A stretch of 64,000 nucleotides of DNA, taken from Candidatus Bathyarchaeia archaeon. GTDB lineage: Archaea; Thermoproteota; Bathyarchaeia; Bathyarchaeales; Bathycorpusculaceae. The position numbers and the translations under genes are program-made. This document shows, one piece after another, positions 2,228 to 64,000 of this stretch. The notes under the pieces were generated by a model. That model ran no database searches. It was not told where the DNA came from and saw only the letters and a list, made by a program, of their open reading frames with translations. How positions within the stretch are numbered: position 1 is the stretch's first letter; the number at the start of each line of letters is the position of its first letter. The stretch lies in the NCBI GenBank assembly GCA_049512075.1, contig JBEKXL010000005.1, forward strand, positions 1-64,000, in the 5' to 3' direction.

Positions 2228-2360
2228 TATTAGGTTATCGCGAAATTTCTTGGTTGCGATTTGACTGCTTGAGGACTCTGCGCGAAGTGTAATAATGTTA
2301 CACCATCCTTAAATCAAAGCATTGACTAAGGGAAATCCACGAATTCTTAGAGGTGCAAAG

Positions 2361-14192: not shown

Positions 14193-14266
14193 GCCGATAA
14201 CCAGCCCTAGAATGAGTGTATAGTTACTTCTGTCTGTAAGCAGATAAATCTACTTGTGCGTGAAAC

Positions 14267-15553
14267 CTATATTACCAGCCTTTCAGGTTCAACACTTCTT
14301 TTCTTCAGACCTAAGTCGCTCACTCGGAATTTTCTGTCTCCGTACAGAAGGGCGTATTCTTCGTCTTCGTAGAGTGCTGCTGCTATTCTTCCAATTGAAT
14401 CGGCCTTCAGTATGCCGCTCCCGCTTGCACCTCCGACGAGCATCATACCGTTTTCTTCGAAGATTATCGGTTGGCCATCGATACTGTTTATTTCGTACAA
14501 TCCGGCGAAGGCTGAGAAGGGTTGGCAGTCCGTAAACTGTGGGAAGTATTTTACCATGACTTGGTACAGGCCGTACCTGTAGTAGTTCTCTTCGGGCTCA
14601 GGTTCCTCCTCAATCTTGAACGCTCTCGGAAACTCGTCAGCGTACGCCAGCCATAAGGCATCCTCTTCAGGAGCGGGTCGAATGTAGGCTGTAGGTTTGG
14701 GAAGAATCGTGAACGGTAAGCATCCGGCGTTTGTGAACTCCTTTGACAACAACAGTTTTTTCAACCCCTCGGTTTTTGCTTTAATCGAGAAGACCTGCCG
14801 CTTCTTGGCCTTGATGAAGCATTCAATTCCCACCGGGTCCAGGAACTGTGAAGCCCAAGCCCCTGCTGCGATTATCGTCTTCTTGGCTTTTATCGGGCCT
14901 CTGCTGGTTTTAACCCCCGTTATTGTTGCGTCCTGCCAGAAGTACGGTTCACCAGGTATACCTAGAGGCTGACGGGGTTCAACAATTACTTCCTTAACGT
15001 CGGTGTTGAACTGAATCTTTCCTCCAAGCTTCAGAAACTCTGACTCGTAAAACTTCACGAGGGAGTCAACGTCGATTAGACCTGCTTTGGGAATCAATAT
15101 TCCCTTGTGAACATTTCCTAAACCCATCATTTTTGCTTCTTCGTCATCCGCAAAGGTTGTTCTCATCTCAAGCTTTCTGGCTAATTCAGCCTCGTCGTAT
15201 TCTTTGTATTCGAAGCCTTTGGCGCCCAGTTCCTTCAGGACGGGGAGCATTTTGCGATAGCCATCCTCGTCAAAAAACCACAAGTAGCCGGCCCACCGCA
15301 GCTTCAAATCAATGTGCAGTTCGCTCTGTACGTGTTTATAGAATTCTGCAGATGAATCGGCCAAGGCAAAGTTTGTCCGAGAGGCGAAGAGACAGCGAAA
15401 TGCGGCTGCGCTCTTCGCAGTGCTGCCTTGGCCCGCAGCACCTCTCTTGTCGATAACTAGGATTTTCAGGTCGGGGTTTCGGGTTTTCAGGTGATAGGCT
15501 GTTGCCAGACCTATGATTCCTGCGCCCACTGTGACTACATCATATTCTGCCAT
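14267..15553 (-). CDS. FAD-dependent oxidoreductase (DAO/sarcosine oxidase/proline dehydrogenase-like)
   Basis: VGAGIIGLATAY dinucleotide fold, GSTAKSAA, AAGAW, GASGSGILKAD. Confidence 0.85.
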   Translation of the reverse strand: MAEYDVVTVGAGIIGLATAYHLKTRNPDLKILVIDKRGAAGQGSTAKSAAAFRCLFASRTNFALADSSAEFYKHVQSELHIDLKLRWAGYLWFFDEDGYRKMLPVLKELGAKGFEYKEYDEAELARKLEMRTTFADDEEAKMMGLGNVHKGILIPKAGLIDVDSLVKFYESEFLKLGGKIQFNTDVKEVIVEPRQPLGIPGEPYFWQDATITGVKTSRGPIKAKKTIIAAGAWASQFLDPVGIECFIKAKKRQVFSIKAKTEGLKKLLLSKEFTNAGCLPFTILPKPTAYIRPAPEEDALWLAYADEFPRAFKIEEEPEPEENYYRYGLYQVMVKYFPQFTDCQPFSAFAGLYEINSIDGQPIIFEENGMMLVGGASGSGILKADSIGRIAAALYEDEEYALLYGDRKFRVSDLGLKKRSVEPERLVI

Positions 15554-43561: not shown

Positions 43562-44458
43562 TCAGGCGGGTGGATTCATTTCCTTCAGCAGGTTTTCAAG
43601 GGTCTTCCTTCCTTCCCTGTCCAATGGCAATGCTGGTTTTCGAGGGTAGCCTCCTGCTAGTCCCTGCAGCCTCATAGCCTCTTTTATTGCTGCGATTTGA
43701 TTGAAACGTTTCACAAGTACCTCGTTTGCGAAGGATATGCAGTTTTGCAGTCTGCTTGCTTCTTCGTATCGCCTGTTCTTGAAAGCCTCGTATAAGTGGC
43801 TGCACAGGGCGGGGAACACGTTTCCGACCGCTAGCACTGCGCCTCTCCCCCCTGTTAGCAGCGTGGACAGCGCTACGTCAGCCGTTCCAGCCAGAACTGA
43901 AATTTTGTCACCTGTTAACCTCACGGTTTCCGTTATCGTGCCGATGTTTCCGCTGCTGTCTTTGATGCCGATTATCCTTTCGTTTTCCGCCGCGAGTTCT
44001 TGAATCTGGGGTGGTTCTAAAGAGACGCCGGTGAACTTGGGAACGTTGTAGACGACGATGGGAATGTCGACAGCTTCTGAGACTGTTCGATAGTGTTCGT
44101 GGATTTCCTTGTTTGACAGTTTAAAGTAGAACGGTGTTACTACAAGTGCGGCGTCGACGCCGAGATCACCCGCGTCCTTGGTGAAGGTGACCGTCTCTTG
44201 GGTGCTCATGCTGCCCGTGCCAGCAATCACGGGAACCTTTCCATTAACCTCATCCAAGATGGTCTCAATCACCTTTATCCTCTCTTGCCTAGAAAGGTAA
44301 GGGGCTTCACCGTTGCTGCCACACGGCGCCAACCCCGAGACTCCGCCTTCCAACCAAAATCCCACGCACGCCCTGAGCGCCTTAACGTCAAGTCGACCCA
44401 TACGTGTGAACGGTGTGACGCTGGGGACAAACATTCCATCAAGGACGAGCCTAGGCAT
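43562..44458 (-). CDS. DapA/NAL family aldolase (DHDPS-like)
   Basis: VTPF, GSNGE, YNVPKFTG, GIKDSSG (Schiff-base Lys). Confidence 0.85.
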   Translation of the reverse strand: MPRLVLDGMFVPSVTPFTRMGRLDVKALRACVGFWLEGGVSGLAPCGSNGEAPYLSRQERIKVIETILDEVNGKVPVIAGTGSMSTQETVTFTKDAGDLGVDAALVVTPFYFKLSNKEIHEHYRTVSEAVDIPIVVYNVPKFTGVSLEPPQIQELAAENERIIGIKDSSGNIGTITETVRLTGDKISVLAGTADVALSTLLTGGRGAVLAVGNVFPALCSHLYEAFKNRRYEEASRLQNCISFANEVLVKRFNQIAAIKEAMRLQGLAGGYPRKPALPLDREGRKTLENLLKEMNPPA

Positions 44459-44637
44459 ACTCTTTCTACTCAGAACCTAACATTTAAAAATTGTCATATA
44501 CGCCTACAACCATAGCGCACACCAAACCCAGCGTGCCATGTGATGCTAAATCTGTCTTGGTTACGTGAATAGAACAGTTTTGTAGGCGTATTTTATGACG
44601 TCAAGGTGTCGGAGAGGCTGGCACTAAATATTAATTC

Positions 44638-46008
44638 TTGAAGATTCCAATTCTATGGAGCAATGGAGTAAGTAAATCAGTGAAATCATTAATCGTCAAA
44701 GGAAAATATGTCTTAACGCTGGACAGAGAGTACAGAACAATCCAACAGGGAGCCGTTTTCGTAGAAGGCGACAAAATTCTGGACGTTGGACCTGCAAAAA
44801 AAATCGAAAGCTCTTACAGCGCTGATGAAATCATTGATGCTAAAGAATGCGTAGTGATGCCGGGACTGATTTGCAGCCACAATCACATGTACGGCGTTCT
44901 TTCGCACGGCATACCCGTTTCCCAGACAACGTCAACTTTCATAGCCTTTCTGAAGAAGTTCTGGTGGCCCCGCATTGAAAATGCTTTGAACAAAGAACAG
45001 ATAAGCGCCGCTGCTTCTATGTCCTCAATTCAAATGGTGAAAACGGGAACAACGTGTTGCGCCGACGTTTTGGAGGCTCCAAACTCGATTCCAGGAGCTC
45101 TGGAGGTTGAGGCTCAAGCGACTGAAATGGTAGGTTTGCGTTCCGTGCTGAGCTTCGAGGCCACTGAAAGAATAAGCGAAGAGAACGGGTGGAAGGGGGC
45201 TGAAGAAAACCTCAACTTCATAAAAATGTATAACAGAAAAAACGATTCATTGACAAAGGGTATGTTTTGCACGCACACCACGTTCACTTGTAGCCCGCAG
45301 TTTCTGAGGAAGGTGAGAGACCTCGCCAACGAATATCCGACAGGAATACACCTTCACTTGGAAGAAGGCGCCTATGAATCAAAGTATTGCCTCACGAAGT
45401 ATGGGAAACTTCCGGTTGAGCTTTACGAAAAAATAGGTTTCCTAGGCTCCGACGTTCTGGCATCTCAATGCGTGCACACGCTTCCAAAAGAAATCAAACT
45501 ATTACGGAAACACGATGTCAAGATTTCGCACATGCCTCTAAGCAACTGTGAAGTCGGCGGTGGCATAGCGCCTGTTCCAAGTTTTCTGCAAGCGGGTCTT
45601 ACAGTCGGACTTGGAACGGACGGATATATCCAAGACATGTTTGAAGTGATGCGAGTCGCATTCCTCATACATAAAGGAAACCTCCAAGACGCCAGCGTCA
45701 TGCCTGCCGAAGCTGTTATTAGAATGGCCACAGTTGACGCTGCAAAAGCGATCCGCATGGAAAACCTCGTGGGCTCAATAACCCCCAAAAAACAAGCCGA
45801 CATCATAACGGTAGACTTGGAATCTCCAACGCCAGTAACAGCGGAAAACCTGATTCCACAACTCGTCGTCTTTGGCGAGGGGAAAATGGTTCAGGATGTC
45901 CTGATAAACGGCAAGAAAATAATGAGAAACAGAAAAATACTCACCATGAATGAAGATATGGCAAGGACGAAGTGTAGAGAAGCTGCAGAGAGTCTGTGGA
46001 ATACCTGA
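44638..46008 (+). CDS. SsnA-like amidohydrolase (chlorohydrolase/deaminase family)
   Basis: PGLICSHNHMYG, FLKKFWW, HLHLEEG, QCVH, GLGTDG. Confidence 0.82.
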   Translation: MKIPILWSNGVSKSVKSLIVKGKYVLTLDREYRTIQQGAVFVEGDKILDVGPAKKIESSYSADEIIDAKECVVMPGLICSHNHMYGVLSHGIPVSQTTSTFIAFLKKFWWPRIENALNKEQISAAASMSSIQMVKTGTTCCADVLEAPNSIPGALEVEAQATEMVGLRSVLSFEATERISEENGWKGAEENLNFIKMYNRKNDSLTKGMFCTHTTFTCSPQFLRKVRDLANEYPTGIHLHLEEGAYESKYCLTKYGKLPVELYEKIGFLGSDVLASQCVHTLPKEIKLLRKHDVKISHMPLSNCEVGGGIAPVPSFLQAGLTVGLGTDGYIQDMFEVMRVAFLIHKGNLQDASVMPAEAVIRMATVDAAKAIRMENLVGSITPKKQADIITVDLESPTPVTAENLIPQLVVFGEGKMVQDVLINGKKIMRNRKILTMNEDMARTKCREAAESLWNT

Positions 46009-47120
46009 TTGAGCGAATGGTGATGGTAAGAACGGTTCGAACGTCACTTTCATTGTGCGGAGTAAGTTTGTCAAACCCTCTGATTCTCGCCGCGGGACCG
46101 TACGGACGCGACGGCAAGACCTTGGAACGCGCGGTGAGGGCAGGTTTTGGCGCAGTTACGACAAAAACGATTAGGCTTGTTGCGGCCAGAAACCCTTTCC
46201 CTAACATGGCCCGGATAGGCAGGGACGCGCTGATTAACGCTGAGAAATGGTCTGACCTTCCTCTTCAAACGTGGGTTACGCACGAGATACCTGCGGTGAA
46301 GCATCTTGGGGTGCCGGTGATCGCCAGCATCGGGTTCACAGAGAAAGAAGCTGGAAAAATCGCTCCGCTGGTTGAAGAGGCTGGCGCTGACTTCATCGAA
46401 ACTGTCACTTACGACGCGGATCAGGTTTTGCCGACGGTTAAAGCCGCCAAGTCCGGAGCGAAAGTTCCTGTGATAGCTAAGGTAAGCGCGAATTGGCCGG
46501 ATTTCCTGAGAATAGCGGTCAAAGCTGAGAAGTTTGGTGCCGACGCCGTTTCAGCGATAGACTCTGTGGGTCCCGTGTTGGCGATAGATGTTGAAACTGG
46601 AAAACCCTTTCTTGGCAATGCGAACGGCGAAGGATGGCTTTCCGGGTCCGCTATTCACCCAATGGCCGTGAGATGCGTTGCCGAAATAGCCAAGCGAGTG
46701 AAGATACCAGTAATAGGTATAGGCGGGATTTCAAACAGTCAAGACGCTGTTGAGATGATGATGGCAGGCGCCCATTGTGTTGAACTGTGCACCGCCCCCG
46801 TCCTCCATGGACTGCAAATCGTCAATCGCATAAAGAACGAGCTTGTCGAATTCATGGAACTGAAGGGCTACAAGTCCATTCAGGAGCTGCGCGGAATCAC
46901 GCTAAAACATCTGGAGAAACAGAAAGAAGAAAGCAAGAGAAGACTACATCCACAGATCGATCGTGAAGCCTGCACTTCATGCGGACTTTGCGCAAATCTC
47001 TGTCCATATCAGGCATTGGCTTTGAGCGAGGGAAAAGTAATCTCATACAAATTAGACTGTCTCAGCTGCGGTCTATGCTATTCCGTTTGTCCTCGGCACG
47101 CCATAAAACTCAGGAGCTGA
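45996..47120 (+). CDS. Dihydroorotate/dihydropyrimidine dehydrogenase-like FMN protein with 2x[4Fe-4S]
   Basis: NPLILAAGP, GAVTTKT, VPVIAK, GWLSG, IGIGGI; CTSCGLCANLCP and CLSCGLCYSVCP. Confidence 0.82.
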   Translation: MEYLIERMVMVRTVRTSLSLCGVSLSNPLILAAGPYGRDGKTLERAVRAGFGAVTTKTIRLVAARNPFPNMARIGRDALINAEKWSDLPLQTWVTHEIPAVKHLGVPVIASIGFTEKEAGKIAPLVEEAGADFIETVTYDADQVLPTVKAAKSGAKVPVIAKVSANWPDFLRIAVKAEKFGADAVSAIDSVGPVLAIDVETGKPFLGNANGEGWLSGSAIHPMAVRCVAEIAKRVKIPVIGIGGISNSQDAVEMMMAGAHCVELCTAPVLHGLQIVNRIKNELVEFMELKGYKSIQELRGITLKHLEKQKEESKRRLHPQIDREACTSCGLCANLCPYQALALSEGKVISYKLDCLSCGLCYSVCPRHAIKLRS

Positions 47121-49066
47121 ACCGCATCACACTCAAATACAAGGGGTACATGGGGAAAATCCTCCGAATAGATTTGACGGCAAGAAGGATACACAAGCAA
47201 GACTTACGGAATGAGGATGCCGAGAAGTTTCTAGGCGGCACAGGGTTCTGCACGAACATTCTTTACGATGAGACTGGCCCAGAAACGAACCCCCTTGGAC
47301 CAGAAAACCGCCTAATATTCGCAGTCGGCCCCCTATCAGCCACAACGTGGCCAGAGTCAGGAAGATACGAAGTTGGCGGCAAGAGTCCGCTCACCAACAT
47401 TCTTGGAGGAGCAAATTCTGGAGGAAGCTTCGGACCTGAAATGAAACGGGTCGGCTACGACGCCATTATTTTCCAAGGTCGTGCGTCCAAACCGGTCTAC
47501 GTCTACATAGAAGATGGAGAGGTCAAGATATTAGACGCAAGAAACCTTTGGGGAAAAGACACTGAGGAAACCATGACAATAATAAGCCAAGACCATGGTC
47601 AGAAAACTCAAGTAGCTTGCATAGGCCAAGGTGGAGAGAACCTTGTGCGTTACGCGGGAATAGTCACGGACCGTTTCCGCCTTGCAGCTCGGTCGGGCTT
47701 GGGGGCAGTCATGGGTTCCAAGAATCTGAAAGCCCTCGCTTTGAAAGGAAGTCTTCGTGTAGAAGTTGCGGACCCAGAGCGTTTCACTGAGCTTGTCGCC
47801 GAGGCAGATAAGAGAATCAAAGCAGACCCTTTTGTGCCCGAAGTCAGAAAGTACGGTACGACGATTCTTGTCGGAGCAATGAACGAGATCGGAAGGTTTC
47901 CGACCAGGAACTTCCAGACAGGAGTTTTTCCCGCGGCTGACAAGATCAGTGGCGAAGTGCTTGTTGAGAAATATAAAATAGCGGACAAGGCATGCTTCGG
48001 TTGCAGGCTTGCATGCAAGAACGTCATCAGAGTCAAGAAAGGCCGCTTCAAGGGAATGACACTGGATCATCCCGAATACGAAACGATATGTGCCTTCGGA
48101 GGCCGAATCGGAAACGACGATCTCGATTCGATAATTGAGGCGCACGTTCTCTGCAACCTCTACGGCATCGACACCATTTCAACCGGCGGCGTAATAGCGT
48201 TCATGATGGAACTATACGAGAAAAGAATAATCAGCGAAGCAGACACAGGAGGCATTGCTTTCAGGTGGGGAGACAAAGACCTGGCTCTGGACCTGATACG
48301 CAAGATCGCATACCGAGAGGGCATAGGCGACCTTCTGGCCGAGGGAACCAAGAGAGTTGCAGAGCGGCTTGATCGCGGTGCGGAAAAATACGCCATGCAC
48401 GTTAAAGGAATGGACATTCCCGCTCAGGATGGCAGAGCACAGAAATCGATGGGGCTGGCACACGCAGTCTCCACAAGAGGGGCAGATCATCTGCGCGCCT
48501 CGGCTTTTCTGGACGAAATAGGTTTTGAAGAGGCTGTGAAGAAACGTTTTGGCAAACGCTATCTGCCCGAAATGGCAAACAGGCTGGACGAAACATACAA
48601 GGGAGTGATGGTTAAGGAGTGTGAAGACTTTGCAGCCGTCGTGAGCTCGCTAGGTCTCTGCTTGACTGGAGGGTATGCGTACCCGCCAATCTTCTATTTC
48701 AAGGATCTCGCAGAAGCCGTCAGAGCCGCAACAGGGATGGAAGCCACTGAGAAATTCTTGCGGACAGCCGGAGAACGCATAGTCAATCTCCAGAGAGCAT
48801 ACAACATTCGCGAAGGCTTGTCTCGGAAAGACGATAAACTGCCGGCGAGGTTTACCGAAGAACCGAGTCCGGACGGGCCGTGCAAGGGACAAAAAGTGAA
48901 ACTCGAAATGATGCTGGACGAGTATTATCAGACACGCGGATGGGACGTCAAAACTGGTCTAATCCCCCGAGAGAAACTGGAACAACTCAACCTGAAGAAC
49001 GTTGCAGACGATCTTGGCAGAAGGGGGAAGCTTCCAATGAGGAATAGGAAAACTCATGGTGGGTAG
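47117..49066 (+). CDS. Tungsten-containing aldehyde:ferredoxin oxidoreductase family
   Basis: GYMGKILRIDL, KSPLT, ARSGLGAVMGSK, CFGCRLAC, PEYET, HVKGMD, RGADH. Start uncertain (CTG 47117 or ATG 47150). Confidence 0.92.
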   Translation: MNRITLKYKGYMGKILRIDLTARRIHKQDLRNEDAEKFLGGTGFCTNILYDETGPETNPLGPENRLIFAVGPLSATTWPESGRYEVGGKSPLTNILGGANSGGSFGPEMKRVGYDAIIFQGRASKPVYVYIEDGEVKILDARNLWGKDTEETMTIISQDHGQKTQVACIGQGGENLVRYAGIVTDRFRLAARSGLGAVMGSKNLKALALKGSLRVEVADPERFTELVAEADKRIKADPFVPEVRKYGTTILVGAMNEIGRFPTRNFQTGVFPAADKISGEVLVEKYKIADKACFGCRLACKNVIRVKKGRFKGMTLDHPEYETICAFGGRIGNDDLDSIIEAHVLCNLYGIDTISTGGVIAFMMELYEKRIISEADTGGIAFRWGDKDLALDLIRKIAYREGIGDLLAEGTKRVAERLDRGAEKYAMHVKGMDIPAQDGRAQKSMGLAHAVSTRGADHLRASAFLDEIGFEEAVKKRFGKRYLPEMANRLDETYKGVMVKECEDFAAVVSSLGLCLTGGYAYPPIFYFKDLAEAVRAATGMEATEKFLRTAGERIVNLQRAYNIREGLSRKDDKLPARFTEEPSPDGPCKGQKVKLEMMLDEYYQTRGWDVKTGLIPREKLEQLNLKNVADDLGRRGKLPMRNRKTHGG

Positions 49067-50916
49067 GCGTTGCAGGCTTTCAGCCCGAGTTCTTTGAGCT
49101 TTTCTTTTCGGGGGGTTCCCTGCTTGGACCATCCCCTAAGACGGTAGTATTTCGAGAGCATCCTGTCCAGTTCGACTGTGCTTCCTTCGAGTGGTTCTTT
49201 GAGGAACCTCTGGGGTAGCTGATCGTCCTTTCGAGAGAACCCCTCTCGTACGTTGAAGCATCGTTCCAGGTTGACGATTCTTTCTCCACAGTTCAAGAGT
49301 TCTTCTTCGGTGAAATTCTCTCCTGTCAACGCTGTGAGGGCTTTTGCAAAATCTGAAGGCATGAAAACGTAGGTTTCGGTCGTGGTGAATTTGCAGACGC
49401 CTAAGGCGTCCGTGATTGCGCAATAGTTTTCAGTGAAAACTACAATTTCAGGCTTGTACGTTGGGTTCCTCGTGTCCAAGATCTTTTCCAAAGGCTTTCG
49501 GGGGAAGAGCTGCTTCGCAACTTCCGTTTTTCGTGCAGAGTCAATCGTTGGCAGAGCGTAGAGGTGATCTGCACCGCGGTTAGATACGGCGTGGCCCAAG
49601 CCGAAGGCTTTCAGAGTTCTCGACTCCTGTCTCGGTATCTCCATTCTCTTAACGTGCATCGCAAACCTGCTTGCCTGTCCGCCTATTCTCTCAGATGCTC
49701 TCGCCGTGCCTTCCGCCAAGACATCGCCGAATCCCTTGCGATGGGCAATCATCCGGATGAGTTCCAGCGTGCTTTCAGCGTTACCCCATTCTAGGGGGAG
49801 TCCCGTTTCCTCCTTGGATATCAAACCCTTTTCGTAGAGTTCCATCGCGAAGGACACTGTCACGCCGGTTGAGATGGTGTCCAACCCCAGTTCATTGCAA
49901 AGCTGGTTGGCCTTCATGATCACGCTGAAATCTGCAATCCAGCACATCGGCCCGAAAGAGTCTATGCTTTCGTACTCTGGTCTCGAGCCCTCCAGAGGCG
50001 CGTATTTCCCTTCCGTGACTCTTGCGTATGCTCGACAGTGGATGGGACATGAGTAACATGTTTCTGGTTTGAGGAAATATCTCTCCCTTATCGTTTCTCC
50101 TGAAATCTGTTCAGCCCATGGAAACCTGGCGATCTGATGGTTCTTGGCTGGAAGGTCTCCTGTCTCATTCTTCGTGGCAATAAGCCACGGCGTGCCATAA
50201 TTGCACAGGCCTTTCAGTTGTGGGTTCTGAGGAGACCAGCTTTTGAGAGCAGCCGTGCATAACTCGCGGAATTTTTCAGGATATGCGGCCTCAACCTTGT
50301 CTTTTCCGGTCACTGCCACTGCTTTCAAGTTTTTGGAACCCATAACCGCTCCCAGTCCACATCTGCCAGCTACTCTGTCCCTGTCGGTTATGATTGAGGC
50401 TATTCGAACCAAGTTCTCGCCCGCCGGTCCTATGCAGGCAACACGGCACTTACCTATTTCTTCCTGAACTGCCTTTATCGCCTCGCTCGTTGTCCTCCCC
50501 CAGATGTGTGCGGCTGACTTCAACGTCGCAGTTTCGTTTTCAACGTGCAGATACGCGGGGTTTCTTGCTTTTCCTGATATGTGTATCAGGTCGTACCCAG
50601 CGAATTTCAGCTCTGGACCGAAGTAACCGCCAGCATGGGCGTACCCTAAACCGTTTGTGAGTGGCGATTTTGCTGCCACTGTTATTCTTGAAGAAGTCGG
50701 CCACATGGTTCCAGCTAGTGGTCCTGCGGAAAAGAGCAGGATGTTTTCAGGTGAAAACGGGTCTGTTTTTTCTTTCAGCTCTTCGAAAAGGTAGTACGAA
50801 GTTAGGCCACGTCCACCCAAGAACTTCTTCAGCATTGGCTTTTCAAGGCTATATTTTTGAACTTCGCCTGAAGTCAAGTCTACGTTTAGTGCTTTTCCCG
50901 TCCAACCGGATGTCAC
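49054..50916 (-). CDS. Tungsten-containing aldehyde:ferredoxin oxidoreductase family
   Basis: GWTGKALNVDL, GGRGL, KSPLT, GRCGLGAVMGSK, CYSCPIHC, PEYES, RGADH. Confidence 0.92.
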   Translation of the reverse strand: MTSGWTGKALNVDLTSGEVQKYSLEKPMLKKFLGGRGLTSYYLFEELKEKTDPFSPENILLFSAGPLAGTMWPTSSRITVAAKSPLTNGLGYAHAGGYFGPELKFAGYDLIHISGKARNPAYLHVENETATLKSAAHIWGRTTSEAIKAVQEEIGKCRVACIGPAGENLVRIASIITDRDRVAGRCGLGAVMGSKNLKAVAVTGKDKVEAAYPEKFRELCTAALKSWSPQNPQLKGLCNYGTPWLIATKNETGDLPAKNHQIARFPWAEQISGETIRERYFLKPETCYSCPIHCRAYARVTEGKYAPLEGSRPEYESIDSFGPMCWIADFSVIMKANQLCNELGLDTISTGVTVSFAMELYEKGLISKEETGLPLEWGNAESTLELIRMIAHRKGFGDVLAEGTARASERIGGQASRFAMHVKRMEIPRQESRTLKAFGLGHAVSNRGADHLYALPTIDSARKTEVAKQLFPRKPLEKILDTRNPTYKPEIVVFTENYCAITDALGVCKFTTTETYVFMPSDFAKALTALTGENFTEEELLNCGERIVNLERCFNVREGFSRKDDQLPQRFLKEPLEGSTVELDRMLSKYYRLRGWSKQGTPRKEKLKELGLKACNAYPP

Positions 50917-51010
50917 GATTGTTGATACTCCCGAACGTGTTATTTATCAATGCGTTTTGCCAGAGATAAGTTTGCTTACGGAAAAAGGCAAAATGCCGGC
51001 TTTCAATATA

Positions 51011-52027
51011 CTAGGTTTTGAAGGATGAAATGATGTCCGTCCCAGCTGACGTTATCCCTTTTTTCCCATCAGGCATAACGAAGATCATCTGTGTCACTCC
51101 AGCTTTGAAGAATTCTTCAACTCTTCCGAGACATTTGTTGGGCTTCCCAGCCACCGAAAACTCATCTATCATTTCATCCGTCATCAAGCCCATCGCTTCA
51201 GCGTCCATTCCTTTCTGCAAGGCTTCTCGAATAGATGCTACACGTTCTATCTTAGTGCCCAATGCCTCATGCACTGAATTCGCGGTGAAAGCAGTCATAA
51301 AAGTGGCCAAATGTCTCACTCTCTTCCTAGCCTCAGAGTCATTCTCGGCGATGGCAAAAGGGAGAATGTTGCCCACGTCTATTTCATCCATGCTCCTCCC
51401 CGCCTTTGAGGCCCCTTCCTCAATTGTTTTCAACGCGTTCTCAATGTAATGAAAAGGCGTGTTCAATAGAGAACCGTCAGCCAATTCGCCGACCATCTGC
51501 ATAAACTTGGGGCTTCTGGCTGCCAGATAAACTGGAACCTTGGTCTTCGGATGAAAAGAAAGATGAACGCCGTTTGCCTTTATCATTTCTCCATCATAGT
51601 CCACAGTTTCGCCAGCCAATACCCGATTCATAACGTTGATACCCTCCCGAACTGTGGCTAAAGGTTTCTCCCACATCTTTATTCCCAACGGTCTGAGAGG
51701 CATTTCTCCTCCGGGCCCCAAACCGACGACAACGCGTCCATTCGCCATTTCCTCGAGCGTGGATGCAAAGACGGCTAAGAGCGCCGGATGTTTCGTGTAG
51801 AAGTTGCATATGCCCGTTCCAATCTTAATCTCGGATGTTTTGAGAGCCACGGTTGTCATGTTTACAATAACGTCCCTGCAAAGAGGCGAAGGATTCTCGT
51901 CCGCAATCCAAACGTGTTTGAAACCATGCGTTTCAGCTGCCTTGGCCAGTTTCGCCGTGTCCAAGGCGGGAGCGAAACCAGCGAGGTTCAGTCCAAAAGT
52001 TCTTGTGCGAGCCATGTTTGTCTTCAC
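51011..52027 (-). CDS. LLM-family (likely F420-dependent) reductase, Mer-like
   Basis: AETHGFKHVWIADE, IGTGICNFYTKHPA, GLGPGG, VPVYLAA..PK....GELADG. Confidence 0.8.
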   Translation of the reverse strand: MKTNMARTRTFGLNLAGFAPALDTAKLAKAAETHGFKHVWIADENPSPLCRDVIVNMTTVALKTSEIKIGTGICNFYTKHPALLAVFASTLEEMANGRVVVGLGPGGEMPLRPLGIKMWEKPLATVREGINVMNRVLAGETVDYDGEMIKANGVHLSFHPKTKVPVYLAARSPKFMQMVGELADGSLLNTPFHYIENALKTIEEGASKAGRSMDEIDVGNILPFAIAENDSEARKRVRHLATFMTAFTANSVHEALGTKIERVASIREALQKGMDAEAMGLMTDEMIDEFSVAGKPNKCLGRVEEFFKAGVTQMIFVMPDGKKGITSAGTDIISSFKT

Positions 52028-52076
52028 CTGTCTAAATGCTTAAGTCGGCACTCAGAAATATTAAAATGGTGGAAAA

Positions 52077-53042
52077 ATGCTGAGCGTCAATAAATCAGCT
52101 GCTTCGATTTGTAAGAAGATGCTGGATGAACCTGAGAAACTGAACATCAAATGCACCCGTTTCAAGAGTGGAGCATACTTGATTGACACCGGAAACAAAG
52201 CCACAGGGGGAATACAGGCAGGCTTGTATGTGACCAAGATATGCTTAGGAGGCGTGGGAAACGTATCGTTAACGTCGATGGATTTGGAAGAAATATCACT
52301 TCCAGCTGTAATGGTCTCAACAGATTTTCCGATTCTTTGTCTCCTGTGTCAAGCATCAGGTGGCTACCGAGAGGCGATGGAAGGCTGGATCAACTTCAAC
52401 GTCGGCTCGTACAATGCCATTGCGAGTGGACCGGCAAGAGCGTTGGTTCACGAACCCAAGAAACTGTTTGAAATGATTCCGTACCTGGACTCAGCTGAAG
52501 AAGCGGTGGTAGTCCTTCAATCGGAGCAGTATCCGAATGAGGAGGCTGCTGATTTGCTGGCAGAAAAATGTGGGGTCAACCCGGAGAATCTATATTTGGT
52601 TCTTGCTCCGCTTTCAAGCATGTCTGGACTCATTCAGGTGACCGGAAGGAGCGTTGAAAACGCGATGGTGAAGCTGCACACTCTTGGCTATGATGGGAAC
52701 AGCGTGGAAAACGCGTGCGGAATTGCGCCATTGCCTCCGCTGAAATCGACGCGGATGGTACCGGATGATATGCTTTCGTACGGGAGCATCGTCCACCTTT
52801 ACGTAATGCCTGATGAAGGAAGGGATTTGGAGCAAATCGCCTACAAGATGCCTTCAAGGACGTCAAAGTGTTACGGTCGATCTTTTTCAGATTTGATAAA
52901 GGAACATGGTGGGCTGAGGGGAATAGACCTTGATCTCTTTGCTCCCGCGGAGGTCTATGTTAACGACTTGTCAACTGGCGAACTGTACCACTCTGGCAGC
53001 GTCAACAGCACGTTGATCAAGACCATGGCAGGTCTTGGCTGA
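52077..53042 (+). CDS. mch: Methenyl-H4MPT cyclohydrolase-like protein, paralogue 1
   Basis: MLSVNKSA, ICLGG, ASGPARAL, QVTGRSVE, YGRSF, LFAPAEVYVNDLSTG. Confidence 0.85.
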   Translation: MLSVNKSAASICKKMLDEPEKLNIKCTRFKSGAYLIDTGNKATGGIQAGLYVTKICLGGVGNVSLTSMDLEEISLPAVMVSTDFPILCLLCQASGGYREAMEGWINFNVGSYNAIASGPARALVHEPKKLFEMIPYLDSAEEAVVVLQSEQYPNEEAADLLAEKCGVNPENLYLVLAPLSSMSGLIQVTGRSVENAMVKLHTLGYDGNSVENACGIAPLPPLKSTRMVPDDMLSYGSIVHLYVMPDEGRDLEQIAYKMPSRTSKCYGRSFSDLIKEHGGLRGIDLDLFAPAEVYVNDLSTGELYHSGSVNSTLIKTMAGLG

Positions 53043-53142
53043 ACTGGCCAGGCAACTGACCTTGCAATCGTTGCATATGGGAAGTGAACCGATCTTTTTA
53101 ATACACGACTGTCCAAGAAGGTTTGGGAACGCGATTAAGACT

Positions 53143-54636
53143 ATGCGGTCATCGTCCTGCCTGCTTGGCGTAGACATCGGAACAGAAGGCTGCAAAGCAA
53201 TAGTGTTTAACCTCAGGGGCGAATCTCTCGCGCGATCGTACCAACAGTATTCAATCACGATTCCTCAGTCTTCATGGGCGGAGCAAGACCCTCAACTGTG
53301 GTGGAAGGCTGTAAGAAAAAGCGTGGCAGATGTAGTCAAACAAACTTCCAATCGTCGAGGAGAAATTGCATGCGTCACCGTTTCGGGTCAATCTCCAGTT
53401 TTGGTTCCAGTTGACAGACGCGGCAATGCGTTAATGAATGCCCTCATCTGGATGGACCGGCGTGCGGTTGAGCAGTCCAAGACGATGGCCGAGACTGTTG
53501 GGATCACGGATGACGCTTCTATGAACTTGCCGAAAGCTATTTGGGTTAAAGAAAACAGGCCGCAGATTTTCCAGGAGACCTACAAGTTTCTTCAAACAAC
53601 GGACTTCATCGAATTCAAGTTGACAGGCAACTTTGTCACCGATTGGCTTAACGCAGGCACCTTTCACTTCGATTATCGCAGGCATGAGTGGCCCACTGGC
53701 CTCTTGAACCAGCTTGAAATATCAGTCGAGAAACTCCCAAAGGTTTTGCGCTCTTCAGAAATTGTCGGCACTGTGACTGATGTGGCCGCTCGTGAAACTG
53801 GTCTTAAGAAGGGCACACCAGTGGCGGCGGGTGGAATCGACGCCTATTTAGCCATAATAGGCGCAAACGCATTGACCGTGGGCTCAGCATGTGAGATAAC
53901 AGGAAGCTCCACGTGCCTGATGGTTCCTTCAAGACAGGATGTTCATGATCCTGAGAAGAGAGTGCAGTGTGAAAAGTTTCCACTATTGCCCAATTTCTGG
54001 ATCACATGGGGAACGATGTCTTCAACTGGGGCTTCTCTGAGATGGTTCCGAGACAACGTCGAACCCCAAGCATCCTACCAAGACTTGGACGCCGAAGCTG
54101 AAAAAGCACCCCCAGGATCCGGCGGGCTCATCTTTCTACCTTACCTAATGGGAGAGCGAAGCCCGTTATGGGACCCATACGCCAGAGGGGTCTTCATAGG
54201 CTTATCATTAAATCATTCTCGCAAGCATCTGATAAGGGCCGTGCTTGAAGGGTGCGCGTTCGGCATAAGACACAACTTGCAAATAATCGAGCAGTTGGGT
54301 GCGAAGGTAGATGAGATCAGAAGTTGTGGCGGAGCTGCAAAGAGCAGGTTCTTTGGACAAATCAAGGCTGACGTAACCGGGAAGACAGTGGTTATTCCGC
54401 GGGAAATCGAAGCCTCCGCTCTTGGCGCGGCCATACTCGCATCGGTCGGCGCAGGATTCTATCCAAATCTGAGAAAGGCCGCTGAAAACATGGCGCACAC
54501 AAAATGCAGAATCAACCCTCGAGAAAGCCTCTTTGAGAAATACGACTTCTCGTTCCGAATGTACAAAGACGCCTATCTACATTTGAAAAAGTACTTCAAA
54601 CGCTACTATTCCTCTGGAAACGCAGTTTCGAACTGA
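53143..54636 (+). CDS. FGGY family carbohydrate kinase (xylulokinase-like)
   Basis: GVDIGT, WAEQDP, WMDRR, GGID, FLPYLMGERSP, EGCAF, GGAAKS. Confidence 0.9.
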   Translation: MRSSSCLLGVDIGTEGCKAIVFNLRGESLARSYQQYSITIPQSSWAEQDPQLWWKAVRKSVADVVKQTSNRRGEIACVTVSGQSPVLVPVDRRGNALMNALIWMDRRAVEQSKTMAETVGITDDASMNLPKAIWVKENRPQIFQETYKFLQTTDFIEFKLTGNFVTDWLNAGTFHFDYRRHEWPTGLLNQLEISVEKLPKVLRSSEIVGTVTDVAARETGLKKGTPVAAGGIDAYLAIIGANALTVGSACEITGSSTCLMVPSRQDVHDPEKRVQCEKFPLLPNFWITWGTMSSTGASLRWFRDNVEPQASYQDLDAEAEKAPPGSGGLIFLPYLMGERSPLWDPYARGVFIGLSLNHSRKHLIRAVLEGCAFGIRHNLQIIEQLGAKVDEIRSCGGAAKSRFFGQIKADVTGKTVVIPREIEASALGAAILASVGAGFYPNLRKAAENMAHTKCRINPRESLFEKYDFSFRMYKDAYLHLKKYFKRYYSSGNAVSN

Positions 54637-54644
54637 CGGAGGGC

Positions 54645-55640
54645 ATGAACATAAATCCCGAAGGATTCGTTAAAGACCTCGAAAACTCTCAAGAAATTCC
54701 TGACCACATCAAACGGCCGAACATCGTAGTTGTCGGCAGCCTACACATGGACTTGACGATCAAGGCCAAGACAATCCCCCGTCTAGGTGAGACAGTGCTC
54801 GGTGACGAGTTCAAGATGTCCCCCGGAGGAAAAGGGGCGAATCAAGCTGTAGCCGCAGCAAAACTGGGGGGAAACGTCACATTAATCGGCAGAGTCGGAA
54901 CTGAGGCTTTCGGAACTGACCTGATAAGAAATACTGGACAGCACCGGATAAACACGAAGTTTATCGTACAAGACAAAGAAACACAGACAGGGCTAGCGTT
55001 GATAATGGTTGACCAGAACGGCAACAACATTATCGCCGTTGCTCCAGGCGCAGATCTGAGGTGCAGCAAAGAAGACATTGACCACGCTGATTCAGTCATA
55101 AAGTCCGCTGACATTTTTCTCGCACAATTAGAAACACCTTTCCCGGTTGTTCAACACGCTATCCAGAAAGCCTTTCAATTCAGAGTCAAGGTGATTTTGA
55201 ATCCGTCTCCAGCTCACAGACTGCCTGAATCTCTACTCAAGAAAGTGTTCGTACTGACTCCGAATGAAAGTGAGGCAGAGAAACTGAGCGGTATTAACAT
55301 AACGGGTTTAAACTCTGCAAAAGAGGCGATCACAGAAATCTTGAAAAAAGGTACCGAAAACATCGTTCTCACGATGGGAAAAGAAGGAGCCCTAGTCGGA
55401 GCAAAAGGAGAAATAGTCCACGTCAAGAGTCCCAAAGTAAACCCGGTGGACACCACCGGTGCGGGAGACGCTTTCTGTGGCGCGTTGGCAGTGGCGATAT
55501 CTTCAGGAGAAAACTTGGAAAAAGCAGTAGTCTACGCGAACTGTGCAGGAGCTTTGGCCACGACCAAGATAGGAGCTCAAGAAGCCTTGCCCACGCGAGA
55601 AGAACTTGAAAGATTCATGAGAAGAAAGGGTCTCGTCTAA
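54645..55640 (+). CDS. rbsK: Ribokinase
   Basis: VVGSLHMD, GGKGANQA, NPSPA, TPNESE, DTTGAGDAF, GAQ. Confidence 0.88.
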   Translation: MNINPEGFVKDLENSQEIPDHIKRPNIVVVGSLHMDLTIKAKTIPRLGETVLGDEFKMSPGGKGANQAVAAAKLGGNVTLIGRVGTEAFGTDLIRNTGQHRINTKFIVQDKETQTGLALIMVDQNGNNIIAVAPGADLRCSKEDIDHADSVIKSADIFLAQLETPFPVVQHAIQKAFQFRVKVILNPSPAHRLPESLLKKVFVLTPNESEAEKLSGINITGLNSAKEAITEILKKGTENIVLTMGKEGALVGAKGEIVHVKSPKVNPVDTTGAGDAFCGALAVAISSGENLEKAVVYANCAGALATTKIGAQEALPTREELERFMRRKGLV

Positions 55641-61293: not shown

Positions 61294-62301
61294 TTAAGGT
61301 TTGCCCATGACATTGTGAACCCGCGGATTCTGTGCTTTGCTCAGTCTGAGGCATTTTCTTATCGTTAAGGGATTCACTTTGCCGGCCTCACATATTTCCC
61401 CTGTCTTCAGGTTGTTTATCATAACCTGGGCTGGTCGAAAGATACCGGGGTAGCCGGGGATTTTCCTGAAATCGTTTTTTGCATGTTTCAGCAATTCTGA
61501 AAAGGTTTTTCCATAGATAGGGGTGGACTCAAACACTAGTTCCTTCGCAAGTCTGTGTATGTCTTCATTGTCTGGCTCTATGGTCATGTACACTGTTCCA
61601 CCATAGCAAAGGAAATCATCTGGAAACGTCTTCATCTCGTCCGATGGACAGACGGGAACTATCGGAGCTGTTCCAACCATTTGTCTGACTTTTCTCACAT
61701 CATAGTGGAGAATTTCCCACATTGTGAATGTAACATCCTCTATTGCTCGGCCTGCAATCTGGGTCGCGCCTGCGATGCTTCGTAGGGGAGTAATGAGCAT
61801 GAACAAGGACGCAGGATCAATATTGCATTCCACAGCGATTCTTTTGGACAACTGCACGGAAGGCAGGTCGTCCATTTGAAGTACTATCACGCCGACCCTG
61901 GAATCGTCATTAACATCCAGCATGTCAAAGAGTTCCTTAGGCTTCTGCGCCAGAACTCTTGCAGGACCAGAGGCAATTGAGGTTGTTTCTTTCTGTTTAA
62001 GCAAGGGATAGCCCGCTTGGACGCCCAAAGTAGCAATAGCAGGCGAGTCTGTCATTACTGTTGCTGCGGGGAGTATCAGGTCTCCGAGTTGTACCATGGT
62101 CAACGATGCCTTGCCAAGTCCACCGAGACAGATCTCGATGATCAGCCTGCCAACTTCAAACCCTCCTCGTGCATGGACTCCACAATCCAATATGGTGGCT
62201 CCACTGTCCGACATTGTGACTACTACACCGAACTTCTCGGGGCACTCCAGAATTCCGTTAACTATCCTGAAAGAAATTTCATTCACTTTTATTCTAGGCA
62301 T
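61294..62301 (-). CDS. mch: Methenyl-H4MPT cyclohydrolase-like protein, paralogue 2
   Basis: IKVNE, GATILDCGV, EICLGGLG, ASGPARVL, QIAGRAIE, YGKTF, PAQVMINNLKTG. Confidence 0.85.
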   Translation of the reverse strand: MPRIKVNEISFRIVNGILECPEKFGVVVTMSDSGATILDCGVHARGGFEVGRLIIEICLGGLGKASLTMVQLGDLILPAATVMTDSPAIATLGVQAGYPLLKQKETTSIASGPARVLAQKPKELFDMLDVNDDSRVGVIVLQMDDLPSVQLSKRIAVECNIDPASLFMLITPLRSIAGATQIAGRAIEDVTFTMWEILHYDVRKVRQMVGTAPIVPVCPSDEMKTFPDDFLCYGGTVYMTIEPDNEDIHRLAKELVFESTPIYGKTFSELLKHAKNDFRKIPGYPGIFRPAQVMINNLKTGEICEAGKVNPLTIRKCLRLSKAQNPRVHNVMGKP

Positions 62302-62311
62302 GTTGAATTCA

Positions 62312-63274
62312 TCAGGTTTCTTGCGCGTACTTGGGATCGGAGGTCTCATGCGAGTTTTCAACGAGTTCTCGCAGGTATATCTTGTTTTTCCCCCAGAGAC
62401 CTCCTTGGTTGAAGCTGCTTATTCCTGTTATTCCTTGTATTCTTGTGATCGTGTCCAAGGAGACTCTCAAGCCCTTTTTCACGGTTTCCAGGTCTAGACT
62501 CCAGACCAGATACTCAATAACAGTGTTGACTCCTAGAGGAACTCTAGTTTCCGCGATCCTGTTACGGATAGTCGGGCACAAGAAAGTCGTGCTTGTCGCT
62601 TTTTCGTTTGTGTAATTAACGCCTCCAATTTTCGCTCCATTCAAACCTCCAAACGGGTGCATCACAAAGGCTCCATCAACCTCATCTTGAACCCTCTCGG
62701 CTGCGGCTCTGGTTGCCAATAGAGCGCAAGAAATGTCCTGACAGAAGAGTTCAAACGCACCATCAAAACTTGTGGTTAATCCAAAGGATTTCTCGACTAT
62801 CGATTCGCCACTCATCACTGGAATGCGGTATATTTTTCTTCCTTCGAGCTGGTCTTCCGTCTCGTAGCCGTCGCCCCAGCGCCTGACCGTTTCGCCCGAG
62901 TTCGTTGTAGCAAGTGTTTTTCTTTTCGGGACTGCGTTGAAAACTGCAACTGTAGGCATGTGTGGAGTTTGGCAGAGCATGTTGGTGAATGCGTCTTCAA
63001 ACATTTTCCTTCCGTCTTCAGTTTCAATGCTCATGCTTCTATTTCCTCGCAGAAGGACAAGGAAGCCTGGTCTCCTATCAGGGGTTTTCGTTGGCGATAC
63101 AGAGTTGCCCAGAAAGCCTTCGATCGGCGAGAAGGTTATGATTCCCCTGCACAGTCGTTGAGCGTTGGCCAGCGCAGCTTCTCTTGTGAGGCTGGTTACG
63201 AGGATTTCGGAGGATATTATTTCGCTGGATTCTATGTAAGTGTCTTCGATGTCCACGCCATTGATCTTCAGCAT
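62312..63274 (-). CDS. ftr: Formylmethanofuran:H4MPT formyltransferase-like protein, divergent
   Basis: KINGVDIEDTY, TPDRRPG, WGDGYE, RIPVMSGE, LCPTI, VIEYLV, FNQGGLWGKNKIYL. Confidence 0.8.
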   Translation of the reverse strand: MLKINGVDIEDTYIESSEIISSEILVTSLTREAALANAQRLCRGIITFSPIEGFLGNSVSPTKTPDRRPGFLVLLRGNRSMSIETEDGRKMFEDAFTNMLCQTPHMPTVAVFNAVPKRKTLATTNSGETVRRWGDGYETEDQLEGRKIYRIPVMSGESIVEKSFGLTTSFDGAFELFCQDISCALLATRAAAERVQDEVDGAFVMHPFGGLNGAKIGGVNYTNEKATSTTFLCPTIRNRIAETRVPLGVNTVIEYLVWSLDLETVKKGLRVSLDTITRIQGITGISSFNQGGLWGKNKIYLRELVENSHETSDPKYAQET

Positions 63275-63309
63275 CAGATTGCAGGTCCGTGGTGGTTGGT
63301 GCTCACGTT

Positions 63310-64000
63310 TTACCAAGGATTGCTCATGAGTCTTCCAATAATGTCTTTGTGAACTCTGCCAGCCTTGTGCATCCTTCCTGTCCTAGTGTCGCTTATAGCG
63401 AACTCTCCAATTATGAAACCAAGTCCTTCTTTGGCGAGCTTGTGCAAATCCAACGTCGGATCGATGTACTTCTTTTCTTCCACTGCCATGTGATAGAATG
63501 ATGTGCCGAAGGTGTTCGGATAGTTCTCTATTACTGATTCCTTAACCATCGTCCCGAAATCCTCTCCTTCTTCTGAACGAACCCAACAGTGAACTGTACC
63601 GCCATATCTGATCATGTCATCGGGCCAGCTGCAAGGTTGCTGCAGAGCTTTCGGCGAAACCGGCGAAATCGGTGTGGTTCCCATAACGTTCTCTATGCGA
63701 CGATAAGGAATCTTGTAATATTCAGTGAGTCGCCAGAACATGTCTTCCACACCCCGCGAGGAGGTTTGAGTGGTTCCCGTTATGCTGTCTGTGGGAATGA
63801 CAACCAAGTATAGATTTTTCGGGTCGATTCTGCACCTCTTTGCGATGATTTTTGAGAATTCTTCATCTGGAAGACCGTCCATGCGTGAACGTGTTTGGAC
63901 CAAGAGGACCGCGTTGTCAGGGTGAGGATCTTCGTAGGGCCATTTCTCAAATATCTTGGCTGGTTCTTGAGCTATAGCCTTCGCCGGTCCTGATATCCAG
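63310..64000 (-). CDS. mch: Methenyl-H4MPT cyclohydrolase-like protein, paralogue 3 (5'-truncated by window edge)
   Basis: Frame is open to the window end: WISGPAKAIAQEPAKIFE...QTSSRGVE...PDDMIRYGG...FGTSF...SDTRTG. Confidence 0.8.
   Translation of the reverse strand, partial: WISGPAKAIAQEPAKIFEKWPYEDPHPDNAVLLVQTRSRMDGLPDEEFSKIIAKRCRIDPKNLYLVVIPTDSITGTTQTSSRGVEDMFWRLTEYYKIPYRRIENVMGTTPISPVSPKALQQPCSWPDDMIRYGGTVHCWVRSEEGEDFGTMVKESVIENYPNTFGTSFYHMAVEEKKYIDPTLDLHKLAKEGLGFIIGEFAISDTRTGRMHKAGRVHKDIIGRLMSNPW

Follow-up and report, generated by a model that had tools for sequence, protein, structure and literature searches.

What would an archaeon do with a ring-opening amidohydrolase and an iron-sulfur flavoprotein of the kinds found in bacterial uric acid clusters, when their genes stand beside genes of the aldehyde ferredoxin oxidoreductase (AOR) family? 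The question is raised by positions 44,638 to 49,066 of the stretch analysed here (the window: 64,000 nucleotides, positions 1 to 64,000 of contig JBEKXL010000005.1, contig 5 below, in assembly GCA_049512075.1 of a Candidatus Bathyarchaeia archaeon with a genome of 2.73 Mb, 99.76% complete). There, a gene for an SsnA-type amidohydrolase (gene 1, product P0001) is followed by genes for a UacX-like flavoprotein (gene 2, product P0002) and an AOR-family enzyme (AOR1), and a second AOR-family gene (AOR2) converges on them. A first-pass annotation, made from the letters alone, had read the three genes as a heterocycle-reduction module for a non-pyrimidine substrate. The anaerobic route for purines (uric acid) was solved only in 2025, and for bacteria alone, namely gut bacteria. 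In what follows, L-numbers denote related loci and G-numbers the genomes of relatives.

The answer that we favour, with a probability as a whole of roughly 0.45, is that the SsnA/UacX-like pair first reduces and then opens the ring of a 2,8-dioxopurine-type oxopurine and that the AORs are ferredoxin-linked ring hydroxylases or dehydroxylases. Judged from homology, the pair probably carries out oxopurine reduction and hydrolysis; it is likely that the AORs belong to the pathway, and only tentatively would we call them purine (de)hydroxylases. The pair is a new archaeal form of the known SsnA/UacX kind, and its wiring to AORs is new as well. In the scheme that we propose, electrons would pass through two [4Fe-4S] clusters to the flavin mononucleotide (FMN) of the UacX-like protein, which would reduce the oxopurine, and the SsnA-type amidohydrolase would at once hydrolyse the resulting cyclic amidine, pulling an unfavourable reduction forward. 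AOR1 and AOR2 would add or remove ring hydroxyls on the way from xanthine or urate to 2,8-dioxopurine, a job done in bacteria by the molybdenum/selenium xanthine dehydrogenase (XDH) family (XDH, XdhD/DOPDH). A hydantoinase-like amidohydrolase, two carbamoyltransferases, a carbamate kinase and two pyridoxal phosphate (PLP) enzymes would form the lower pathway.

The assignment of gene 1 is carried by motifs, profiles and phylogeny. P0001 matches Amidohydro_1 (180 bits), carries HxH, HxHxxE, H and GTDG as its metal-binding and catalytic residues, and finds its best NCBIfam models in the two SsnA profiles, NF005540 and TIGR03314. Its translation contains GLICSHNHMY and LKKFWW, which align with CSHNHFY and LKNLWW of E. 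coli SsnA (b2879; E 1e-50), so that the SsnA-type CSHNHxY and LKxxWW motifs of the first-pass annotation are indeed present; HxHxxE, the conserved His and GTDG are also common to the two proteins. In the reductive uric acid (2,8-dioxopurine) pathway it is the amidohydrolase SsnA of E. coli that opens the ring, and in both organisms the gene adjoins a reductase gene. In a tree of 49 rows P0001 lies within a 39-row clade (SH-aLRT 99) that holds E. coli SsnA and excludes the second amidohydrolase of the same genome, E. coli GuaD and the other amidohydrolases of the related loci, which bears out the proposed subfamily. Within this clade, P0001 is the first branch of a 15-row subclade (SsnA-1) whose partners are reductases of the type called T1 below, unlike E. 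coli SsnA, which is found in the sister group SsnA-2.

P0002 consists of a DHOD/DPD-type FMN barrel and a C-terminal 2x[4Fe-4S] ferredoxin domain (Pfam DHO_dh and 4Fe-4S dicluster, Fer4, domains, 116 bits), with no FAD/NAD(P)H domain. The strings GADFIETVTYDADQV and SAIDSV are present in its translation. When 22 relatives were aligned, P0002 and 14 others were found to have a gap of about 23 alignment columns, which takes away the ELNxSCPN...G loop and with it the catalytic Cys found in PreA and DHOD B. In place of the xINT of PreA-like and DHOD-B-like proteins stands AIDS (NT to DS). Both of these departures had been noticed in the first-pass annotation, and the alignments confirm them. The eight ferredoxin Cys and the Lys and Gly residues of the FMN site are conserved. 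An AlphaFold2 model of P0002 (pLDDT 94.4) has its best fold match in pig DPD domains IV-V (TM-score 0.83-0.87 on the query), and compares with L. lactis DHOD B at a TM-score of about 0.69-0.70. P0002 therefore shares with pig DPD, PreA and class 1B DHOD the fold and the FMN-site Lys and Gly, and with PreA and DPD the 2x[4Fe-4S] tail; it differs from all of them in the deletion and the NT to DS change, and from PydA/DPD in having no catalytic Cys loop. The DHO_dh-type FMN domain and Fe-S clusters are also shared with the 2,8-dioxopurine reductases (DOPOR) C. difficile UacX and E. coli YgfK (Li et al. 2025; Liu et al. 2025); like UacX as described there, P0002 has no FAD/NAD(P)H domain, its gene adjoins ssnA, and the same pathway neighbours are found in related loci.

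A separate canonical PyrD is encoded in the same genome (contig 9:259-1107, 264 bits), which indicates that gene 2 is a paralogue with another job and rules out P0002 as the housekeeping PyrD. This agrees with the proposal of a non-pyrimidine substrate, as do the loss of the Cys loop and the changes at the Asn positions. Among named homologues, the best match to gene 2 comes from a Candidatus Bathyarchaeota archaeon (69% identity). Full-length matches to P0002 at E 1e-75 or better were found in six of 301 sampled genomes of the window's own class (the genome itself, G254, G057, G064, G076 and G185); four more genomes have weaker full-length matches and the rest PyrD-like ones only. One of the six, G254, carries at least five UacX-like genes on separate contigs.

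A reductase tree of 58 rows, with C. difficile UacX (UniProt Q181U4) left out, places P0002 as the first branch of an 18-row clade, T1 (SH-aLRT 99), marked by NAEKWSD, IE(L/T)-V(S/T)Y and AIDSxGP. Neighbouring T1 is a 25-row clade, T2, with proteins of Clostridium, Paraclostridium, Desulfurococcales and Heimdallarchaeota, marked by ELSTHY and by INS where T1 has AIDS. The forms that bear the Cys loop branch nearer PreA; P0002 groups with DHOD-like Fe-S proteins that have lost the loop. T1 takes in four fused forms (L016, L020, L038, L058; about 830-870 aa), in which the T1 domain is joined N-terminally to a GltD/YgfK-like NAD(P)H module. This fused form stands between UacX and E. coli YgfK and gives substance to the link with YgfK that had been drawn before. 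The Tyr directly after the shortened loop is kept in both Cys-less types (VSY in T1, THY in T2; residues 137-139 of P0002); judging by the alignment, one might speculate that it replaces the lost Cys as proton donor.

The company of the pair in other genomes points to purines. A scan of one genome per species gave 80 loci, of which 52 (L001-L051 and L058) were taken as the family; the remaining 28 match only across roughly 300 residues, as ordinary PyrD does. Of the 52, from bacteria and archaea, 42 have an SsnA-like gene, which in 23 lies within 400 bases of the flavoprotein gene; five of the ten loci without one had less than 350 bases of upstream DNA to inspect. Neighbouring genes were clustered and representatives named with NCBIfam. 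Counted over the 52 loci, they include an XDH-type Mo subunit (26), YgeY (22), D-hydantoinase (15), carbamoyltransferase (14), XdhB (9), xanthine permease (8), diaminopropionate ammonia-lyase, YgeX (8), carbamate kinase (7), Rid (7) and a ThrC-like PLP enzyme (7), and genes for BMP-type (nucleoside-type) ABC transporters recur as well. By homology these are the genes that make up the reductive uric acid (2,8-dioxopurine) pathway, and the link to anaerobic purine clusters with SsnA and YgfK, drawn in the first-pass annotation, holds for these loci. According to Li et al. 2025, XdhD makes 2,8-dioxopurine from urate, YgfK and SsnA convert 2,8-dioxopurine only when together, and C. difficile has in place of YgfK the DHO_dh-type UacX, probably ferredoxin-dependent. 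The same pathway is reported by Liu et al. 2025, where C. sporogenes requires two selenium-dependent Mo hydroxylases, XDH and DOPDH.

AOR genes are found repeatedly within operons of this kind, in Spirochaetales, Chloroflexota, Hadarchaeum and Heimdallarchaeota as well as in the window's own class. Nine of the 52 loci contain one, eight detected by clustering and one (L023) by tblastn. The gene order is SsnA-UacX-AOR in L003 and L021, Fdx-AOR-MoaD-SsnA-UacX in L036, SsnA-fused reductase-AOR-HyuA-XDH in L020, Fdx-AOR-x-UacX-YgeY in L045 and, in further loci from the window's own class, AOR-UacX in L129 and UacX-MoaD-AOR-HyuA-Fdx in L127. The arrangement singled out in the window is therefore found again elsewhere, L003 and L021 being examples. 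In four relatives of the same class, UacX-like genes again occur with genes for AOR, HydN-like ferredoxin, MoaD/ThiS-like, SsnA-like and hydantoinase proteins (L126, L127, L129, L130, L132, L173). The triad of the first-pass annotation is incomplete: it is to be extended by AOR2, probably another component of the module, and by genes located farther along the contig.

Both window genes are AOR-family members by domain content (AFOR_N 258 and AFOR_C 457 bits for AOR1, 259 and 443 bits for AOR2), and the best solved relative of AOR1 is P. furiosus AOR (1aor, 487 bits). AOR1 keeps the residues aligned with E313 and H448, which we take to be the numbering of the P. furiosus enzyme and have checked against the printed alignment, together with the four cluster Cys. 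The earlier label of a tungsten AOR is thus upheld as to the family; whether the metal is tungsten or molybdenum cannot be read from sequence. The AFOR_N/AFOR_C architecture is common to AOR1 and the solved enzymes 1aor, 8c0z, 9g7j, 9mqx, 9q1t and FOR (1b25), and MoaD-like and polyferredoxin genes accompany AOR1 homologues as in multi-subunit AORs.

A tree of 46 AORs, from the window, the seven copies of the genome, five relatives and the bacterial loci, shows all linked AORs in three clades inside one 28-row clade (SH-aLRT 97). Clade A, which includes AOR1, has 11 rows (SH-aLRT 99), eight of them in loci with UacX/SsnA genes; clade B, with AOR2, has eight rows (SH-aLRT 99), six so placed; and all four rows of clade C come from such loci. 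For the other 23 AORs of the tree no UacX/SsnA neighbours were seen, most being judged on ±1.5 kb of DNA. Besides AOR2, clade B contains AORs from within the SsnA-UacX operons of Spirochaetales (L002, L003, L021), L020 and the Chloroflexota locus L024. The window, contig 35 of G254 and L024 each have a clade A gene next to a clade B gene. All 23 AORs of the three clades have RG(A/G)DH at the catalytic His (RGADH in AOR1), whereas five solved AOR-family enzymes, when aligned, read RGxCH, or IGAHH in FOR, with Cys or His where the linked clades have Asp. RGADH is also found in four of the 23 other AORs. A search for strictly clade-specific residues, kept in 85% or more of the linked AORs and in no more than 20% of the rest, gave none; only this motif stands out. 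Unlike the solved tungsten AORs, AOR1 has Asp before the catalytic His, sits in a purine-type operon and has no evident source of aldehyde. Two further AOR-family genes of the window (2322-4756, +; 12357-15553, -) lie outside the linked clades; one follows a gene for a 4Fe-4S protein and the other adjoins a gene for a DAO-type FAD oxidoreductase.

AOR and XDH genes seldom share a locus. They do so in one of the 52 loci (L020), that is, in 1/9 of the loci with an AOR against 25/43 of the others (Fisher p = 0.024, with related genomes not independent). The XDH family (PF02738) has no match in this genome at 99.76% completeness, nor in G254, G057, G185, G076 or the genome of L018. The suggestion that a tungsten AOR stands in place of XDH, or serves as electron donor, is consistent with the recurrence of AORs in the operons, with the single locus that AOR and XDH share and with the XDH-free genome; it is weakened by the presence of XDH elsewhere in AOR-linked genomes and by clade A-like AORs without SsnA/UacX, both detailed below. 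Its strong form, replacement of XDH by AOR at the level of the genome, was rejected.

Purine (de)hydroxylation is formally like acid/aldehyde interconversion at a C=N carbon, a parallel that links aldehyde oxidase and xanthine oxidase. In the clusters, the AORs hold the place that corresponds to that of the Mo(/Se) hydroxylases by which 2,8-dioxopurine is formed, XdhD-YgfM/DOPDH (XdhAC) and clostridial XDH, and by this formal analogy they might be equivalent in function, albeit as members of an unrelated protein family. The counts also run parallel, with two hydroxylases used by C. sporogenes (XDH and DOPDH, according to Liu et al. 2025) and two linked AOR paralogues in the window. The most specific version of the proposal, in which RG(A/G)DH AORs are ferredoxin-linked purine hydroxylases/dehydroxylases, the tungsten-type counterpart of the Mo/Se XDH family, with clades A and B standing for the XDH and DOPDH steps, is doubtful.

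Several observations weigh against the favoured reading. P0001 is only 28% identical to E. coli SsnA and scores below both SsnA cut-offs (346 vs 444 bits for NF005540; 330 vs 455.5 for TIGR03314); P0002 falls below all NCBIfam cut-offs (PreA 204 vs 335; PyrD 181 vs 269), and direct homology between P0002 and E. coli YgfK was dismissed on a match of only E 0.002. UacX itself was assigned by homology and context, as far as the text of Li et al. 2025 that we had shows. YgeX has no match in this genome and the best YgeY candidate is below the cut-off (77 vs 321.5). PF02738 is present in 10 of 16 UacX-bearing genomes tested, including eight of 13 AOR-linked genomes, where it lies elsewhere in the genome. 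The canonical residues of AOR1, its nearness to P. furiosus AOR (as near as many paralogues), the number of AOR genes in these archaea, the partners of some clade A-like and clade B genes and the split between T1 and T2 belong to the same side of the balance.

The alternative that survives best, unlikely though we consider it, makes the AOR an electron-input module, which oxidises an aldehyde or other donor and feeds the [4Fe-4S] clusters of the UacX-like protein, directly or through the HydN-like polyferredoxin seen in other loci. UacX-type proteins are without the FAD/NAD(P)H module of YgfK, and reduced ferredoxin has been suggested as their donor (Li et al. 2025). The residues E313 and H448 and the cluster Cys kept in AOR1 are those of true aldehyde oxidoreductases; the AOR and reductase genes are often immediate neighbours, separated by 20-44 bases in the window and in L021, L126 and L129, and HydN-like ferredoxin and MoaD-like genes accompany the AOR, as in known multi-subunit AORs. 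No aldehyde-producing step, however, is evident in the pathway or the clusters. An AOR is moreover kept in L020, where the reductase has its own GltD-type NAD(P)H module, which argues against a mere electron donor. Clade A-like AORs also adjoin other amidohydrolases without any UacX: in one archaeal family, an RGADH AOR stands with an Amidohydro_3 hydrolase in four of five loci (L178, L179, L180, L183; genomes G164, G128, G289, G236), and genes for transporters (BMP-ABC, ABC permease, MFS or amino-acid permease) are present in each of the five. The likeness to clade A is here one of identity and motif.

It is improbable that the pair is purine-type and the AORs are unrelated neighbours, namely the usual aldehyde oxidoreductases of an archaeon that ferments peptides or aldehydes. 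AOR genes are numerous in these archaea (seven in this genome, four of them in the window; 23 matches in about 1.5 Mb of G254), so some adjacency by chance is expected, and only nine of the 52 related loci contain an AOR. A search of the own class with AOR1 gave further genes at 46-55% identity, and for eight clade A-like AOR loci, assigned by identity and motif rather than by tree, no SsnA/UacX gene was found within about 8 kb. In G076 the clade B gene has genes for indolepyruvate oxidoreductase (IorAB) as its neighbours, a setting that points to the classic role with aldehydes. Against these stand the same adjacency in distant lineages with few AOR genes, where the AOR is in the same operon, between pathway genes (L003, L020, L021, L036), the gathering of linked AORs in three clades while the other 23 are unlinked, and the RG(A/G)DH motif common to the linked ones.

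Equally improbable is the third alternative, that the pair acts on another heterocycle (an oxopurine isomer, a pterin or a modified base) and that T1/SsnA-1 is a separate specificity class: the subtypes co-vary (SsnA-1 with T1, SsnA-2 with T2, E. coli SsnA being in SsnA-2), their substrate-side motifs differ (AIDS vs INS), this genome is without YgeX, YgeY and XDH, and nearby Mch and Ftr paralogues hint at pterin-type or C1 chemistry, but T1 and T2 loci share their pathway genes (XDH in 8 of 17 T1 loci, YgeY in 8, HyuA in 5 and carbamoyltransferase in 5) and it is in T1 that the fusion with the YgfK-like module occurs. T2 is the type of the UacY-bearing Clostridium and Paraclostridium loci. 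C. difficile UacX, too, is probably T2, to judge from its gene order UacY-SsnA-x-UacX-HyuA, as in Paraclostridium L012, and for this reason the T1 protein of the window may prefer another substrate.

In the bacterial route, every addition or removal of a ring hydroxyl relies on XDH-family molybdenum hydroxylases, in clostridia with selenium as well. By homology, the ring-reducing and ring-opening pair exists also in archaea of peat and sediment, and there it is wired to AOR-family enzymes. If AORs do carry out ring (de)hydroxylation, a well-studied family of tungsten enzymes would gain a new class of reaction, and the fermentation of nucleic-acid purines by such archaea would be explained; archaea, some Spirochaetes and Chloroflexota would then ferment purines via 2,8-dioxopurine to carbamoyl phosphate and ATP without an XDH-family enzyme. 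If the AORs merely feed electrons, the pathway would still exist here in a new variant. With few enzymes, and with substrates that are known and obtainable, the idea is directly testable. There is no mention of tungsten, aldehyde ferredoxin, AOR or archaea in the preprint of Li et al. 2025, of tungsten or archaea in its Life Metab version, or of tungsten, aldehyde ferredoxin or archaea in the preprint of Liu et al. 2025. In the literature searched, nothing joins aldehyde ferredoxin oxidoreductase with ssnA or dioxopurine with tungsten, and what joins AOR, purine, tungsten and xanthine dehydrogenase is, by titles and abstracts, general reviews.

The features of the locus and of the candidate lower pathway are listed in the table below. 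The longest open reading frames (ORFs) on the + strand, all co-directional, are 44638-46008, 45996-47120 and 46979-49066, and on these the genes had been described as three overlapping ones. The three ORFs exist; the overlap is a property of the longest ORFs, and that of genes 2 and 3 is an artefact, the genes being tightly packed. The ORF of gene 1 opens at TTG 44638, but the most likely start is GTG 44680, since the SsnA profiles begin at residue 18 of the ORF and GGAG stands 12-15 bases upstream of that GTG. Gene 2 starts at GTG 45996, with a 13-base overlap with gene 1, or at ATG 46017 or 46023, with a gap of 8-14 bases, and stops at TGA 47118-47120. In the third ORF, AFOR_N begins at residue 59 and ATG 47150 has the G-rich ribosome-binding site GGGG(T) 4-9 bases upstream, from which we place the start of the AOR1 gene 29 bases after the TGA of gene 2. 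The end of the converging AOR2 gene overlaps the AOR1 gene by 13 bases.

Table. Genes of the locus (window positions) and of the candidate lower pathway (positions on contig 5), with the evidence for each
Feature	Position	Strand	Evidence
SsnA-type amidohydrolase (gene 1)	44680..46008	+	Amidohydro_1, SsnA profiles, motifs, tree
UacX-like Fe-S flavoprotein, type T1 (gene 2)	45996..47120	+	DHO_dh and Fer4 families, loop deletion, tree
AOR-family pterin enzyme, clade A, 638 aa (AOR1)	47150..49066	+	AFOR_N/AFOR_C, tree
Second AOR-family gene, clade B, convergent (AOR2)	49054..50916	-	AFOR_N/AFOR_C, tree
Luciferase-like (Mer-like, F420-type) oxidoreductase	51011..52027	-	Mer profiles, below cut-off
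Second amidohydrolase, SsnA-like	contig 5:64506-65897
Carbamate kinase homologue	contig 5:74880-75830
Two OTC-type carbamoyltransferases	contig 5:75944-77035 and 79934-80995
Two PLP enzymes, one ThrC-like as beside UacX in Desulfurococcales loci	contig 5:77110-79862
Hydantoinase-like amidohydrolase	contig 5:82194-83579, also given as 82230-83564		368 bits vs cut-off 393

The TFE, aTrm56 and Mch genes that neighbour the locus (Pfam, NCBIfam) mark an archaeon. The DNA of the locus is present in 20 sequencing runs, from peat, wetland and sediment metagenomes; none of the runs listed is RNA. A scan of 44300-52200 for sigma-70 promoters and intrinsic terminators, not designed for archaea, found 6 and 8 sites, against 6.1 and 8.9 in shuffles.

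From the carbamate kinase homologue onwards, the genes of the candidate lower pathway lie 30-39 kb further on the same contig, in a cluster that also holds a DUF1611 gene and is preceded by genes for 2-oxoacid dehydrogenase E1/E2 and lipoate ligase. In this cluster YgeY may be replaced by the second carbamoyltransferase, and YgeX by one of the PLP enzymes.

Whether the luciferase-like gene upstream of AOR2 is part of the module is uncertain. It matches the Mer model TIGR03555 with 259 bits (cut-off 349) and NF002619 with 256.5 bits (cut-off 276), and its homologues adjoin AOR genes in L159 (43% identity) and L143 and lie 2.4 kb from a UacX-like gene in L033. A luciferase-family F420 enzyme is reported in SsnA neighbourhoods of Chloroflexota by Li et al. 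2025. Since the gene is adjacent to the Mch gene at 52077-53042, it may simply be Mer.

That Mch gene (+) is one of three paralogues of the methenyl-H4MPT cyclohydrolase family in the window, the others being at 61294-62361 (-) and 63310-63999 (-), with an Ftr-like gene at 62312-63316 (-); two of the Mch genes and the Ftr-like gene directly precede the second, SsnA-like amidohydrolase. Just downstream of the first Mch gene are a XylB-like kinase and a ribokinase (TIGR02152, 336 bits vs cut-off 300) at 53035-55640 (+), which, together with the BMP-type ABC transporters of related loci, hint at nucleosides as feed.

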